Source: an uncultured Muribaculaceae bacterium (GTDB taxonomy: Bacteria; Bacillota_I; Bacilli_A; RF39; UBA660). From it: 64,000 nucleotides of DNA. A model generated the notes under the pieces. That model was given only the letters and a program-made list of their open reading frames with translations. It was not told the origin of the DNA and searched no databases. A program made the position numbers and the translations under genes. This document shows positions 21,125 to 28,724 of this stretch, piece by piece; the first letter of the stretch is position 1; each line of letters starts with the position of its first letter. The stretch spans positions 361-64,360 of the forward strand of contig CAYWFZ010000004.1 in the NCBI GenBank assembly GCA_964458035.1. Direction: 5' to 3'.

Positions 21125-22288
21125 TTATGCCGTCTTAATTACTACATTTTCTGTAGTCCATGAGGACGGACATTCAACCCCATAACCTTTTAGCACCATG
21201 TTCTGAGCTTTAGCATCTTTTACTTTTACAATTGCCTCTGCTGGCATATTATTAAAAACATCATATTTATGTGACATATTGCTTGTATCAAATGAACTTA
21301 TATCCAACATAGTTAAATTAGTACATCCAGCGAACATCTTATTCACACAACTAACCTTACTCGTATCAAAACTACTCAAATCCAAAGACTTTAAATTCTT
21401 ACAATTCATAAACATTTCTTCCATATTTGTTACATTGCTTGTATTAAAGGTACTAAAATCTACTATTTCTAAAGAACTACAGTCTCTAAACATCCAATGC
21501 AAACTTGTTGCACTACTTGTATCAAAGCTGCTTATATCCAAATTGACTAAAGATTTGCACGCATTAAACATCGCAACCATATCCGTTACATTTGAGGTAT
21601 CAAACGAGCTTAAATCTATTTTTATTAAATCATAACAATAGGCAAACATATTTCCCATTTTTATAACTTTATTTGTATTGAAACTGCTTAAATCTAATTC
21701 TATTAAAGAATCATTAGAAAAAAACATACATCTCATATTCTCCACGTTACTTGTATCAAAGTGACTTAAATCCAAACTAGTTATACTACTGCATCCATCA
21801 AACATACTTTCCATATTTATCACTTTAGCAGTATCAAAATTACTTACATCAAGGATCATTAGACTACTACAATGATAAAATAATCTTTCCATTGAAGTTA
21901 CATTTCTCGTATCAAATGATCTTACATCCAAATTGTGCAAATTATTGCATCCTTCAAACATACTTGTCATATTCGTTACGTTAGACGTATCAAAATTACT
22001 TGTATTCATTTTCAATAAAGTAGTACATCCTTTAAACATGCTAGACATATCAGTTACATTCGAGGTATCTAGATACTCTAATCCTTCTATTTCTAGTAAA
22101 TTTGAAAAATAAGAAAAAAGACCTGAACAGTTTTGACTTGCCTTTACACCTGTAATAGATTGAATATATAGTATATATTTGGGGCCTGAATCTGGAAACA
22201 TCTCATTCTTAGTCTTCTCAATATAAACATCAAATTCTTCATCTGTTGCCTCTTGCTGTTCTACAGCATATTTTTTTAAATTCCTCAA
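21125..22288 (-). CDS. BspA/DUF285-type leucine-rich-repeat protein, C-terminal portion of a frame-split gene
   Basis: 387-aa ORF, opened by the ORF track with TTG. Contains 10 repeats of the ~25-aa unit L..LD.S.FDTSNVTNM..MF..C. The C-terminus aligns with that of the 849-aa paralog, and there is no signal peptide of its own. Confidence 0.8.
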   Translation of the reverse strand: MRNLKKYAVEQQEATDEEFDVYIEKTKNEMFPDSGPKYILYIQSITGVKASQNCSGLFSYFSNLLEIEGLEYLDTSNVTDMSSMFKGCTTLLKMNTSNFDTSNVTNMTSMFEGCNNLHNLDVRSFDTRNVTSMERLFYHCSSLMILDVSNFDTAKVINMESMFDGCSSITSLDLSHFDTSNVENMRCMFFSNDSLIELDLSSFNTNKVIKMGNMFAYCYDLIKIDLSSFDTSNVTDMVAMFNACKSLVNLDISSFDTSSATSLHWMFRDCSSLEIVDFSTFNTSNVTNMEEMFMNCKNLKSLDLSSFDTSKVSCVNKMFAGCTNLTMLDISSFDTSNMSHKYDVFNNMPAEAIVKVKDAKAQNMVLKGYGVECPSSWTTENVVIKTA

Positions 22289-23213
22289 TAGTCATTCCCA
22301 ATTCTAATTCTATATATTTTTCAAAATAATTGTTTTTTTCTTTGTCTGACAAACCAAAAAATCTATTTTTTAATAATGCAAGTTCAATAAGAGCTGAGCC
22401 CTCAGTATTTATATCATTACCTTGCCTTTCAACAAGATTCTTTATATATTCTTCTTCAGTCATTCCTGTTAATACCATTAATAGTTCTTTAAATTTTACA
22501 TCTTTTTCTTCATCTGATAAAACAAAAGGAACTAGATAGCCCATTACGCTTCCATTATGTTCTTCAGATAAATCAAATGTTAGGTCATCTGTTGTTTCAT
22601 GTGGAATAACTTTATTTTCAAAAGTAGTTTTTAATACAGCATCCCTATATGCCCACAACCCAGTTGGCTCGGTCTCATCATTTGTAGCAGTCATCATTAC
22701 GCCACCTTGGCTAAATGGTTCAATATATTCTTCTCCTAAAGATTCTCTTTTTTTAGCATTAGCATTTAGCTTACATTCTATATGAAACTCCTTTTGTTCA
22801 TTTACCACCTTTTTTACTGAAACAATTAATGTACCTGTCTTTGTTTCTCCAGCTAAAACATTCATCTCTTTAGGTTGAAAATCAAATGATATGAACTCAT
22901 TATCATCAGAAGAAAAGGCAATAGTTACATTAGCATCATAGTTTCTCGACGTATTTGTGACGTTATATATTAGAGTTGTTGACTCTCCTAGTTCCTTAAG
23001 CTCCTTAGAAACAAATTCTATACGCTGTTTATCGTCTGATATAAAATCCTTTCTTATCAATCCATCAAGTTTTGCACTTGTAAATATTACATTGAAATCA
23101 TCTTTATTTTCTCCTATACCAACAAGCCCATTAATCACAAGTGTTGTACTAACAGCTGCAAAACCAATTGCTAGAAAAATAATCAATATGATTATTATAT
23201 TTCTTCTTTTCAT
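22239..23213 (-). CDS. N-terminal portion of the same frame-split LRR surface-protein gene (signal peptide + conserved N-terminal module)
   Basis: Start MKRRNIII at 23213 (AGGTG upstream). The N-terminal ~160 aa are very similar to the paralog at 23316..25859. The frame ends 10 codons after an A7 tract (22271-22277), and the downstream ORF continues in the +1 frame. Confidence 0.8.
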   Translation of the reverse strand: MKRRNIIIILIIFLAIGFAAVSTTLVINGLVGIGENKDDFNVIFTSAKLDGLIRKDFISDDKQRIEFVSKELKELGESTTLIYNVTNTSRNYDANVTIAFSSDDNEFISFDFQPKEMNVLAGETKTGTLIVSVKKVVNEQKEFHIECKLNANAKKRESLGEEYIEPFSQGGVMMTATNDETEPTGLWAYRDAVLKTTFENKVIPHETTDDLTFDLSEEHNGSVMGYLVPFVLSDEEKDVKFKELLMVLTGMTEEEYIKNLVERQGNDINTEGSALIELALLKNRFFGLSDKEKNNYFEKYIELELGMTIEEFKKICCRTARGNR

Positions 23214-23302
23214 ATATACACCTACTACTATTACTACATTCATTGTATCAAACATTTGATGGACTAACACTACTTTAAGTGTATAATGACATATTGATTG
23301 AC

Positions 23303-23327
23303 AAAAAAAAGAAGCTTATACAGCTTC
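23303..23327 (-). terminator. Rho-independent terminator after the 849-aa LRR gene
   Basis: Stem GAAGCT/AGCTTC (23311-23316 and 23322-23327), 5-nt loop, then T8 on the minus strand (23303-23310). The stem overlaps the stop codon. Confidence 0.7.
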
Positions 23328-25859
23328 CTTAATTACTACATTATCTACTGTCCATCCAGTTGGTCTATCATTACTGCCTAGTGCAAGAGCCCAATCTTGT
23401 ACAGCTTTATCTTTAACATATACAGTAGCAGAAGAGTTAACCCCATCAAATATATAATTTTTACTAGAAATAGAATTAATTCGTTCATAATCTAGATTAC
23501 TTATATCTAATGTTATTAAACTATTACAATTAAAAAACATAAAACGTATATCAGCCACATTTGACATATTTAAAGATGAGAGGTCTAAATTTTTTAATTT
23601 TTTGCAATTCGAAAATAGTTGCGACATATCAGTAACATTACTTGTATCTAATGCAGTTAAATCCAAGCTTATTAACCCCTCACACTTTTCAAACATCGAA
23701 CGCATATTTGTTACATTAGATGTTTGAAAATCACTTAAATCTATACTTGTTAATACGCTACATTCCCTAAACATATTAGACATATTTGTTACATTAGATG
23801 TATCAAATTTAGTTAAAACTATATTTGTTAATTTGCTACATCTGAAGAACATGCCCGACATATCTGTTACATTAGATGTATTAAGACCTTCCAAGTCTAT
23901 TTTTGTTAGACCACTACAGCCACTAAACATGTCAGACATATTTGTTACATTGCTTAAATTTATTGATTTCATATTTATATCATTTAAAGCCATACACGAT
24001 TCAAACATATTAGACATATTTGTTACACTGCCTGTGTCCAATGGAGTTAAGTCTATACTTGTTAACCCCCAACAATTTAGAAACATCTCGGACATATTTG
24101 TTACACTGCCCGTGTCCAATGGAGTTAAGTCTATACCTGTTAAACCGCTGCATCCCAAAAACATACCCGACATATTCGTTACACTTGAAGTATTTAATGA
24201 GGTTAAATCTATATTTGTTAAATTTCTACAATTCGCAAACATTCCAGACATATTGGTTACCTTACTTGTATCTATCGAAGATATAGTTAGGCTTGTTAAT
24301 GAACTACAATTTCCAAACATTCTAGTCATAGCTGTTACATTACTCGTATTTAACGGAGTTAAGTCTATACTTGTTAAGCCAGACTCAGAAAACATTTCAG
24401 ACATATTTCTTACACTGCTCGTATCTAGTAAAGTTAAATCTATAGATTTTAAAGCATAGCATCTGCCAAATAGCGAGGACATATCTGTTACATTTCTTGT
24501 TCCATAAGAAGAAAACAATACAGATGTCAAAGCAATGCATTCATAAAACATTGAAGACATGTTTGTTACACTCGACATATTTAATGAAGATAAGTCAACA
24601 GCCAATAATGCCCTACAGAATTCAAACATTGAGGACATATTAACCACATTACTTGTATTTGCTGATGTTAAATTTATACTTGTTAAACTGCTGCATTCGT
24701 AAAACATTCTTGCCATATTAGTTACATTAACAGCATTAAGTCCCTCTAAATCAATTGTTGTTAAACTACTACAGTTGCTAAACATGTAAGACATATTTGT
24801 TACATTATTTATATTTATAGATTTTAAATTTATATCATTTAAAGCAGTACACCCCGCAAACATATAACTTATATCTGTCACTTTTGAAAAGTCTATTTGA
24901 TTTAAGTCAAAGCTTGTTATACTTTCACATCTACTAAACATAGATTGCATAGAAACGGCATAACTTGTATCAAAATACTGCATATTTCTTATCTCTTTTA
25001 ATTCTCCGAATCCTGCAAATAAACTACTCGAATCATAATTAGCATAAACCATCTCGTTTCCTTGAATATATAAAGTATATCCATTTGTTGTTTCAGTCAT
25101 ACTACCATCACCATTACGCAAATAATGTGAATCTTCAAATGTATCTTCATTTTTTACTAAATACGCCATTACAGATCTGTCTTGTGCGACTGACACATCA
25201 AACGACATAGTTCCTTCTTCATCATGCGAGTATAAAGTGTTTTCAAATTCAACTTGGGTTATTACACTAGAATTCTTCCAAAAGAATCTTTCAGCAGCAG
25301 CAGCTCTAGTTCTAATTGAATTTGATGGGAATCTAGACATCATCATTCCTGGCATACCATATTTTGTAAATTCTCCAACACTATCTCGCGCTAAAGCTTT
25401 TGCACCTAATGTAAGACTTACTTTAATTTCCTTTGGCTCAGTTAATGCCTTTTTTAATCTAATACGTATACCCCCATAGTTGCTTTCTCCTGCTGCTAAT
25501 TGCATAGTACTTGGCTCATATTCAACATCTACTAAATCATTTTCTTCTATATTATATGTAAAATCTATATCTGCATCATAACCTTTAGAAAAATTGGTTA
25601 CTTCAAAAATTAAAACATATTCTTCTCCAACTGTCGATAACTCATATGTTTCAAATTCAATATTCTTTCCTTCATTAGTTATAAAATACTCACTTACATC
25701 TTCATCATACACCATTGCTTTTGTAAAAATTACTTTAAAGTCATCTTTGTTCTCGCTTATACCAACAAGTCCATTGATAACTAGTGTTGTACTAACAGCG
25801 GCAAAACCAACTGCTAGAAAAATAATCAACATAATTATTATATTTCTACGTCTTTTCAT
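23316..25859 (-). CDS. BspA/DUF285-type leucine-rich-repeat surface protein (intact paralog)
   Basis: Start MKRRRNIII at 25859 (AGGTG upstream). It has a signal peptide, a conserved N-terminal module, and 19 recognisable 25-26-aa repeats (L.SIDL..L.TS.VTNMS.MF..C). Confidence 0.88.
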   Translation of the reverse strand: MKRRRNIIIMLIIFLAVGFAAVSTTLVINGLVGISENKDDFKVIFTKAMVYDEDVSEYFITNEGKNIEFETYELSTVGEEYVLIFEVTNFSKGYDADIDFTYNIEENDLVDVEYEPSTMQLAAGESNYGGIRIRLKKALTEPKEIKVSLTLGAKALARDSVGEFTKYGMPGMMMSRFPSNSIRTRAAAAERFFWKNSSVITQVEFENTLYSHDEEGTMSFDVSVAQDRSVMAYLVKNEDTFEDSHYLRNGDGSMTETTNGYTLYIQGNEMVYANYDSSSLFAGFGELKEIRNMQYFDTSYAVSMQSMFSRCESITSFDLNQIDFSKVTDISYMFAGCTALNDINLKSININNVTNMSYMFSNCSSLTTIDLEGLNAVNVTNMARMFYECSSLTSINLTSANTSNVVNMSSMFEFCRALLAVDLSSLNMSSVTNMSSMFYECIALTSVLFSSYGTRNVTDMSSLFGRCYALKSIDLTLLDTSSVRNMSEMFSESGLTSIDLTPLNTSNVTAMTRMFGNCSSLTSLTISSIDTSKVTNMSGMFANCRNLTNIDLTSLNTSSVTNMSGMFLGCSGLTGIDLTPLDTGSVTNMSEMFLNCWGLTSIDLTPLDTGSVTNMSNMFESCMALNDINMKSINLSNVTNMSDMFSGCSGLTKIDLEGLNTSNVTDMSGMFFRCSKLTNIVLTKFDTSNVTNMSNMFRECSVLTSIDLSDFQTSNVTNMRSMFEKCEGLISLDLTALDTSNVTDMSQLFSNCKKLKNLDLSSLNMSNVADIRFMFFNCNSLITLDISNLDYERINSISSKNYIFDGVNSSATVYVKDKAVQDWALALGSNDRPTGWTVDNVVIKEAV
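23460..24960 (-). repeat. Tandem 75-78-bp coding repeats (LRR units)
   Basis: Periodic DNA is visible by eye. The best pair is 24013-24066 versus 24091-24144, which differ at 2 of 54 positions. Confidence 0.85.
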
Positions 25860-25996
25860 ATACACACCTACTACTATTTATTCTATTGTATCAAACATTT
25901 GACGGTCTAACACCACTCTAACTGTATAATAGTTATCTAGTTTACGAATAATAGCGCACTTTCATGTCAATAAAAAAAGAACTACAAGAGTTCTTT

Positions 25997-28307: not shown

Positions 28308-28394
28308 ACCTCATCCCTCTTTAAGAAATTATCTTAACACATTTTAATAATATTTAAAACACTAAATACATAAATATATATCGAGGTGAAAAAA

Positions 28395-28724
28395 ATGAAT
28401 GGAACATATTATCCAAATCCCACATTCCCAAACAATATGACAAACTTCGCACCAGAACAAGAAGTAAGTACAAATACTCTGCCTATGGAACAAAGTTATA
28501 TTGAAAATATCTTAAGATTAAATAAAGGAAAGAAAGCCAAAGTATTTTGCTCCTTCCCTGATTCAAATGAATGGAGAGATAAAATCTATAATGGAATTAT
28601 TGAACAATCGGGTAAAGACCATCTTGTTATGTCATCTCCCGAAAGAGGAGATTGGTATTTAATTCCAATGATTTATGTTAATTGGGTAGAATTTGAAGAG
28701 CCAATTAATTTCAAAGTATTTTAA
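28395..28724 (+). CDS. gerQ: Spore coat protein GerQ-like
   Basis: Core MEQSYIENILRLNKGKKAKVFCSF...GKDHLVMSSP...YVNWVEFEE matches my recollection of the GerQ C-terminal domain. ATG at 28395 has GAGGTG 6 nt upstream. Confidence 0.7.
   Translation: MNGTYYPNPTFPNNMTNFAPEQEVSTNTLPMEQSYIENILRLNKGKKAKVFCSFPDSNEWRDKIYNGIIEQSGKDHLVMSSPERGDWYLIPMIYVNWVEFEEPINFKVF

Follow-up and report, generated by a model that had tools for sequence, protein, structure and literature searches.

A shared N-terminal unit, preferred as an export-and-display module, heads unrelated proteins of uncultured gut Bacilli

Why do proteins that have nothing in common over most of their length begin in the same way? The question is raised by a stretch of 64,000 nucleotides, called the window below, from an uncultured bacterium deposited as Muribaculaceae (GTDB lineage Bacillota_I; Bacilli_A; RF39; UBA660; assembly GCA_964458035.1, contig CAYWFZ010000004.1, positions 361 to 64,360). 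Three open reading frames (ORFs) on its minus strand, genes A, B and C, have an N-terminal module in common. On the strength of sequences and predicted structures, this unit of about 165 amino acids (aa) is preferred here, with modest confidence, as a lineage-specific N-terminal module for export and display, made of an uncleaved signal anchor and a membrane-proximal pedestal. The unit itself is absent from curated libraries and from the searchable literature, but devices of this type are familiar: they combine a signal for export or anchoring at the N-terminus with an immunoglobulin (Ig)-like spacer and a variable binding domain.

Gene A (23316..25859) encodes 847 aa, comprising the module (residues 1-165, 25365..25859; hidden Markov model (HMM) E 2.4e-82, supported by alignments), a region ahead of the leucine-rich repeats (LRRs) and a series of DUF285/PARCEL repeats. 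Gene B (21125..23213) is a single module-plus-DUF285 gene of 695 aa if repaired, lying at present in two ORFs (22239-23213 and 21125-22288), with its module at 22719..23213 (residues 1-165; HMM E 7.8e-87). Gene C (38679..40019; 446 aa) joins a glycine-rich domain of the ALK/LTK type to a module in which two loops are shorter than in A and B (residues 1-145, 39585..40019; HMM E 3.8e-63). The region at 22719-25859 thus extends from the ATG of A (25859) to the end of the module of B (22719). The N-termini read MKRRRNIIIMLIIFLAVGFAAVSTTLVINGLVGISENKDDFKVIF in A, MKRRNIIIILIIFLAIGFAAVSTTLVINGLVGIGENKDDFNVIF in B and MKGRFFLVLTLIFCLLVGFAAANTVLDITGSLNVAENLEDFKIEI in C, and a second motif, in the VTNxSxxYDA region, reads LIFEVTNFSKGYDADI, LIYNVTNTSRNYDANV and LEYTVTNYSYQYDASI, respectively.

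An initial annotation of the window had proposed that two LRR proteins and a glycine-rich protein share their N-terminus, and every motif it quoted was found in A, B and C. The similarity reaches past the signal peptide, since BLASTP matches persist once the hydrophobic segment has been removed, with an E value of 6e-13 over 134 residues between B and C and of 6e-6 between A and C. An HMM of the three N-termini, run against the six-frame translation of the window, recovered exactly A, B and C, the next best hit having an E value of 0.19. Two details of the earlier description need adjustment. The shared module measures about 165 aa, ending at a conserved A-x-E-R, instead of about 150, and the motif.T.L.I.G......EN is present with five residues, not six, between the conserved G and EN.

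The anatomy of the module was read from an alignment of 66 homologues, pairwise less than 62% identical, from which the column statistics were taken. Residues 1-5 form a basic, MKKK-like tip, and residues 6-16 are hydrophobic and freely variable in sequence. The second half of the hydrophobic segment is a near-invariant motif of 13 residues, (I/V)GFA(A/S/T)(V/I)STTLx(I/L)NG, in which residues 17-29 are G (100%), F (98%), A (100%), (A/S/T), (V/I), (S/T), T (91%), T (86%), L (95%), any residue, (I/L), N (86%) and G (98%). It reads GFAAVSTTLVING at residues 18-30 of A (25770..25808), where it was placed by column conservation, and also at residues 17-29 of B (23127..23165), where alignment and column conservation agree; in C a divergent version, GFAAANTVLDITG, aligns at residues 18-30 (39930..39968). 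A 12-residue acidic linker (IxxNxxDF) follows, with I33, N36, D39 (92%) and F40 (95%). Within the beta domain, N87 and S89 are invariant and Y92-D93-A94 are conserved at 94-98% (the VTNxSxxYDA turn), C100 and C147 at 91-92%. The domain closes at E155-R156 (88-89%, the AxER end), after which come a variable linker and the cargo.

The motif is kept in proteins that are otherwise 30-50% identical. Genes A and B differ from each other at synonymous sites within it, which points to selection on the protein and not on the DNA. A DNA-level cassette for recombination or phase variation, such as the vsp/vsa systems of Mycoplasma, was considered and rejected given these synonymous differences, the lack of inverted repeats around the genes and the conservation across genomes at 30-50% protein identity. 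The cysteine pair is C/C in 267 of 280 modules and its losses are mostly joint, to V/V, L/L or V/I. Such replacement by hydrophobic pairs suggests a buried disulfide and hence a fold on the outside of the cytoplasmic membrane; the two cysteines are presumably bonded, as judged from this covariation. An intramolecular isopeptide bond between K135 and N87 was also considered and discarded, as K135 is not conserved in the deeper alignment.

Around the motif, the uncharged run has a median length of 27 residues and contains an acidic residue in none of the 280 sequences. Lysine and arginine stand ahead of the helix and a stretch rich in glutamate and aspartate right behind it, a pattern that by the positive-inside rule corresponds to an N-in/C-out orientation. 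AlphaFold2, given the module of B and an alignment of 66 sequences, predicted one helix from residue 2 to residue 28, a linker and eight strands within residues 42-155, with a mean predicted local distance difference test (pLDDT) score of 89.3 and a predicted template modelling (pTM) score of 0.71; block means of pLDDT were 94-97 across residues 41-150. When the same sequence was modelled with 16 sequences, the sandwich was again confident, the helix covered residues 3-21, and residues 22-34 were left unplaced (pLDDT below 50).

The predicted beta domain is an Ig-like beta-sandwich, a generic fold class. Its Pfam matches are weak (Ig_3, E 0.002; FixG_C, E 0.048), and the top 50 Foldseek matches in the PDB are sandwiches of MSP/VAP, ASH, PapD-like, CfaB, FixG_C and cupredoxin types (E about 1e-3, TM-scores 0.3-0.45). 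In BFVD the best matches are envelope proteins of the VP24/VP26/VP28 type of white spot syndrome virus (WSSV), and these are weak too (E 3e-5 to 1e-3, TM-scores 0.33-0.44). The TasA/camelysin-like or pilin-like fold that had been put forward for testing found no support, the sandwich being of the generic Ig-like kind. Homology to TasA or camelysin was rejected after negative fold searches and an hhalign probability of 1.7%, obtained with a provisional sequence of B. subtilis TasA.

An N-terminal helix under a beta domain recalls type IV pilins, and the modules might be divergent, 'modular pilin'-like subunits whose helix would leave the membrane to join a filament core, while the sandwich would be a globular head and the cargo a set of grafted modules. 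The lollipop architecture, a 27-residue N-terminal hydrophobic helix with a beta domain, speaks for this reading, and streptococci are known to make modular pilins whose functional modules are C-terminal. Against it, there is no class III signal, as the residue ahead of the hydrophobic run varies (S, N, K, L and others) and no G or A is conserved at position -1. No sequence of the 280 has D or E in the segment, leaving no equivalent of E5, and neither an N_methyl or pilin match in Pfam or NCBIfam nor a type IV pilin among the fold matches was found. The variable half is moreover the first half of the helix, the opposite of what is seen in pilins. The pilin reading is accordingly rated very improbable and, with both the class III signal and Glu5 missing, it is essentially excluded.

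How, then, might these proteins be kept at the cell? None of the 280 modules contains a lipobox ([LVI][ASTVI][GAS]C), and any cysteine at all occurs within the first 30 or so residues in only 12 of them. A C-terminal sorting signal of the LPXTG type is found in 0 of 427 proteins, the four motif matches being incidental and without a following transmembrane (TM) segment, and a second strongly hydrophobic segment, a 17-mer, is present in a single one of the 427. The initial annotation had seen no LPXTG, lipobox, choline-binding or SLH domain in the three proteins, and the Pfam, NCBIfam and motif scans bear this out. Since the proteins hold no other anchoring element, the N-terminus itself would keep the adhesin-like cargo (LRR, glycine-rich, List_Bact repeats, lectin-like domains) on the cell. 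The basic tip and hydrophobic segment would direct each protein to the Sec translocon in the N-in/C-out orientation, and the beta-sandwich would fold outside the membrane as a membrane-proximal pedestal. The leader has features of a substrate for Sec and signal peptidase (SPase) I, with an n-region of 5 residues, an h-region of 11 and the invariant G-F-A, yet its uncharged run is 27 aa long and its AlphaFold2 helix spans residues 2-28. An uncleaved anchor is favoured because of this helix, the long uncharged run and the lack of another anchor. The helix would stay in the membrane, and in the outer leaflet its GFAxVSTTLxING face, made of small and polar residues, may pack on a common membrane partner or on other copies of the module. 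The module would then fill the place that lipoboxes take in the PARCEL lipoproteins of Mycoplasma, or that LPXTG/sortase signals take elsewhere. We infer from these features a role in export and attachment, and the module is probably the main route by which its carriers export proteins and retain them at the cell.

Several observations weigh against an uncleaved anchor. The carriers are all uncultured metagenome-assembled genomes (MAGs), and the reading comes from sequences and models. The first 19 residues resemble the ordinary cleavable signal peptides of the organism, G at -3 and A at -1 suit SPase I, and LepB-type peptidases occur in relatives. Because residues 22-34 are unstructured in the shallower AlphaFold2 run, the long helix is not robust. 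The motif is conserved on all faces, and a recognition site for an enzyme fits this at least as well as helix packing does. The loci that carry the module (1.04 Mb) have no conserved neighbour gene that could encode the partner. A GDSL lipase as cargo, or the Cys-rich tail of about 115 aa described below, need not be bound to the cell. Two other readings stay live since the leader would suit SPase I well as a substrate, no face of the motif is free of conservation, and the pattern V-x-T-x-L-x-I-x-G-x-V-x-I is strand-like and compatible with a donor strand after cleavage.

According to the first of these, SPase cuts at GFA|A and the new N-terminus, AVSTTLxINGxxxI, serves as a donor strand or docking peptide that links subunits to one another, as in TasA, archaeal threads and chaperone-usher pilins, or to the wall. 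The product would be a heteropolymeric fibre or lattice decorated with cargo, in which module-only proteins are the major subunits. In its favour, conservation is 100% for G at -3 and for A at -1 and continues through positions +1 to +10, as in SipW-type substrates. From V21 to I33 hydrophobic or small residues (V, T, L, I, G, V/T, I) take every second position, as they would in a long amphipathic strand, and this is the very segment left unplaced in the monomer by the shallow AlphaFold2 run. Short proteins (165-201 aa) with the module and little or nothing else do occur beside long cargo-bearing ones, and the pilins CfaB and Caf1 are among the weak fold matches. The deeper run, on the other hand, makes residues 2-28 a single helix, the hhalign comparison with the provisional TasA sequence gave the very low probability cited above, and no TasA entry appears among the top 50 fold matches in the PDB. 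A search by regular expression for the SGSMEP motif of SipW-like peptidases returned nothing in the window or in the 1.04 Mb that surround 129 module genes in relatives; only LepB-type box D motifs were seen, and no neighbour resembles an usher or chaperone. A cargo of up to 2,300 aa on every subunit would also crowd a fibre. Cleavage followed by assembly is judged unlikely, though it is the main rival of the uncleaved anchor.

The second reading takes GFAxVSTTLxING as the recognition site of a dedicated membrane enzyme, either a transpeptidase or an intramembrane protease of, for instance, the rhomboid kind, which would process the proteins and possibly attach them covalently to lipid or wall. 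It would be the N-terminal counterpart of the lipobox with Lgt-Lsp, or of LPXTG with sortase. Thirteen consecutive positions conserved on all faces, preceded by a variable h-region, are what lipoboxes, class III signals and C-terminal sorting signals typically show. The rhomboid recognition motif of Strisovsky (2009) reportedly has I or V at P4, A at P1 and V or I at P2', which would fit around GFA|AV. Further support comes from a distant sister family of about 190 aa, found in some of the same MAGs (loci L001, 11703..; L002, 14310..; L003, 12892..; L045, 5990..), whose leader S(I/V)GYAA(Y/F)DxxLxIxG keeps the (I/V)GYAA(Y/F)DxxLxIxG pattern on a different beta-sandwich (KPGDVYEFTVDVKNAGSFNAKL). 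It aligns with the module at an hhalign probability of 69% (E 4.6e-5), has no match in Pfam or NCBIfam, and has 18 homologues, all named 'hypothetical protein [Bacilli bacterium]'. No candidate enzyme gene, however, is linked to the module genes in the loci examined, and rhomboid substrates are usually N-out. Genes for proteins of 551-565 aa, in which a large cytoplasmic region at the N-terminus and one TM segment are followed by a sortase-B-like domain at the C-terminus (TLSTCFSHTTRHVVHA), do lie one or two genes from a module gene in conserved synteny (L020 8-1684, L024 2542-4194, L030 6624-8300, L074 10418-12094, L075 5912-7606), despite the lack of C-terminal sorting signals in the module proteins. 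With about one module gene per 70 kb, their nearness can be explained by chance and is probably coincidental. A dedicated enzyme is regarded as quite improbable.

In a broader form, GFAxVSTTLxING would be an unrecognised N-terminal sorting signal, by which a dedicated enzyme or assembly partner cleaves the proteins and attaches them covalently, or by which the modules polymerise, through donor strands or a helix bundle, into a surface structure decorated with cargo. This is rather unlikely. If true, uncultured gut Bacilli related to Mollicutes would possess a new system of surface display in place of anchoring by sortase or as lipoproteins.

The cargo of the module is diverse. The initial annotation was right to see LRR and glycine-rich cargoes, and their families can now be named more closely. 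The repeats are of the DUF285/PARCEL type and not BspA LRR_5 proper: A matches PF03382 (DUF285) with 425 bits against a cut-off of 25 (E 1.9e-129) and NCBIfam PARCEL (TIGR02167) with an E value of 7.7e-127, over 17 tandem repeats of 26 aa with a DNA period of 78 nt, and the second ORF of B matches DUF285 with 264.5 bits (E 9.9e-80). The glycine-rich domain of C is PF12810, formerly Gly_rich and now ALK_LTK_GRD (134.8 bits, cut-off 24.5, E 6.4e-39), with residues 170-444 covering positions 7-243 of the 243 in the profile. Among 103 representatives, cargo was assigned to DUF285 (20), ALK_LTK_GRD (20), Flg_new, that is, List_Bact repeats (13), DUF6273 (7), CarboxypepD_reg (6) and BspA LRR_5 (3), with single cases of Laminin_G_3, F5_F8_type_C, GDSL lipase and Lcl_C; many have no Pfam match. 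In all, at least ten unrelated families follow the module, and several of the longest members consist mostly of Flg_new repeats. At the other extreme, short proteins of 165-201 aa hold the module alone or little beyond it. The commonest subfamily (281-289 aa; P0016, P0022, P0032, P0034 and most of P0190-P0297) ends in a tail of about 115 aa with some ten cysteines (YYYAFGTPTTASATDYTTLGKNVF...C..C..C) and no Pfam match. Gene duplication and fusion would have shuffled these domains behind the module.

Curated libraries do not name the unit. Pfam and NCBIfam returned nothing relevant to it, at E values up to 1 with full proteins and up to 10 with an isolated homologous module, a profile search of PDB sequences gave nothing below an E value of 0.1, and the motif string is absent from the searchable literature. 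The initial annotation had been unable to match the module to a family; it does not map cleanly onto any characterised one, and its likeness among proteins is not confined to the signal peptide. Homologues are nevertheless numerous in protein collections. A word-indexed search found 42 and its profile repeat 562, all unnamed and with no precomputed Pfam domain. When 1.84 billion representatives were searched exhaustively with the HMM, 2,204 clusters matched at E values up to 1e-3, of which 922 reach 1e-10 and 388 reach 1e-30. In the best 150 of the 2,204 clusters, proteins of 130-2446 aa each contain the module once, beginning no later than residue 15 and occupying roughly residues 1 to 168.

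GTDB species genomes hold 164 copies of the module. The 77 loci retrieved belong to gut MAGs named 'uncultured Bacilli bacterium' (Hadza, mouse MGBC and others), to Firmicutes bacterium CAG:582 and to a small number of MAGs that bear the label Muribaculaceae, and all loci obtained have a guanine-plus-cytosine (GC) content of 23-34%. The proposal of a lineage-specific adaptor for secretion or attachment, onto which different domains are shuffled, is supported by this restriction to low-GC gut MAGs, mostly 'uncultured Bacilli', together with the range of cargoes. In the Muribaculaceae-labelled MAGs (L001, L005, L009, L032, L046, L065, L071, L075 and L076), the module lies on contigs of 26-34% GC whose gene content is like that of the Bacilli MAGs, and they may thus be mislabelled or mis-binned. 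The carriers, uncultured gut Bacilli with reduced genomes, are relatives of the Mollicutes. One carrier contig measures 1.35 Mb, which suggests small genomes of about that size. The relatives' DNA examined (1.04 Mb) contains 129 module ORFs, with as many as five inside 12 kb, and three MAGs have 20 or more distinct paralogues apiece. An origin from mobile elements was rejected, as tblastn with the module found no match in 50,697 phage and 72,556 plasmid records.

The genomic surroundings of the module genes are ordinary. In the Pfam-annotated contexts they are scattered among housekeeping genes, and when every ORF of 120 aa or more in 80 loci (1.04 Mb) was clustered, no neighbour family proved enriched beyond local synteny. 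The window itself has 26-32% GC, uses genetic code 11 and carries pheST, ligA, pcrA, dnaB, rplI, ssb, rpsF and prfB, nearly all on the minus strand. Its other exported proteins rely on lipoboxes, as do the lipoproteins at 54026-54475 and 62131-62874, or on ordinary signal peptides that are not conserved, which sets the module apart as a separate class and not the generic signal peptide of the organism. Among them are a secreted protein of 1,033 aa (47085-50186, minus strand) with Big_2, GLUG and hyaluronate-lyase N-beta domains and a C-terminal type I dockerin, and a Thr-rich protein of 359 aa with a C-terminal TM segment (50190-51269, minus strand); both have ordinary signal peptides. A dockerin is unexpected in so small a genome. 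In a protein of 542 aa (42101-43729, minus strand), the N-terminal half is long, of low complexity and rich in Q and N; the protein has one TM segment, and its C-terminal domain has no Pfam match. On the plus strand, 28386-28724 encodes a homologue of the spore coat protein GerQ (PF09671, E 3.6e-31), from which it follows that the organism probably sporulates.

Genes A and B are recent tandem paralogues, as their sequences indicate. The 5' upstream region of A (25868..25930, minus strand; repeat family D6) is 81% identical to that of B (23225-23287), the 5' regions of the two genes are 81-86% identical, and both contain an extended -10-like element (TGATACAAT) and an AGGTG ribosome-binding site; the duplication, as read from these sequences, took in the promoter. 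The reading frame of B is broken at a homopolymer of seven A (T7 on the plus strand; 22271..22277, minus strand), a break located by sequence and by a fusion test. Deletion of one A from this run yields an ORF of 695 aa, and the repaired fusion matches intact homologues from end to end, for example P0091 over residues 1-694. By this sequence comparison, B is one gene whose frame is broken by one extra A. The same truncated product of 338 aa is present in the protein database (P0049). The frameshift could be due to phase variation, as in Mycoplasma surface genes, to decay into a pseudogene or to an assembly error.

The related orders RFN20 and ML615J-28 have been reported to lack srtA/B, and a 'reduced surface protein expression' was inferred for them (PMC10868615). 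The module family suggests another solution to anchoring in the bacteria that carry it. Their surface proteome is predicted to be large, with 20 or more paralogues in a genome that all depend on one unannotated N-terminal unit, and by sequence the module is the predominant element of what this little-understood gut lineage is predicted to display. One HMM allows the repertoire of adhesins and host-interaction proteins to be enumerated across metagenomes, 2,204 clusters being known to date. Its invariance suggests that the motif may have a dedicated partner or may be a new kind of sorting signal, for which the module flags a candidate. Leader and pedestal together also form a compact cassette that already displays very different domains in nature.

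Known systems resemble the module in part. The closest in cargo are the PARCEL (DUF285) lipoproteins of Mycoplasma and Listeria (NCBIfam Mbov_0838 family), which have the same 26-aa amphipathic, LRR-like repeats as A and B. Both they and the module proteins form multigene, variable surface families in reduced-genome Bacilli and Mollicutes (PMC2996958). The Mycoplasma proteins are anchored by a lipobox and an acylated cysteine, whereas the module has instead a TM/leader motif and an Ig-like domain that are absent there. TasA and camelysin (Peptidase_M73, TIGR04088) share with it a leader conserved into the mature N-terminus (G-x-aromatic-A|...) and a subsequent beta-sandwich with V-x-N-x-(G/S), but the module does not match their profiles in Pfam or NCBIfam at an E value of 10 and TasA carries no cargo domains. 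Type IV pilins, including the 'modular pilins', likewise combine an N-terminal hydrophobic helix with a globular beta domain and optional C-terminal modules; they differ in their class III signal, Glu5 and prepilin-peptidase site, while the conserved part of the module is the distal half of the helix. Type II signal-anchor proteins and the WSSV proteins VP24, VP26 and VP28 (PDB 5hlj, 7dda) also place a beta-sandwich or barrel above the membrane on an N-terminal TM helix, although the viral proteins show no sequence kinship with the module, only weak fold scores, no modular cargo and no conserved TM motif. Relative to the LPXTG/sortase adhesins with Ig-like stalks the polarity is reversed, the anchor of the module being N-terminal, and an LPXTG-like signal and the CnaB, Big and SLH domains do not occur in the module proteins. 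Even so, both follow the same logic, in which a generic anchor is joined through an Ig-like spacer to a variable binding domain.

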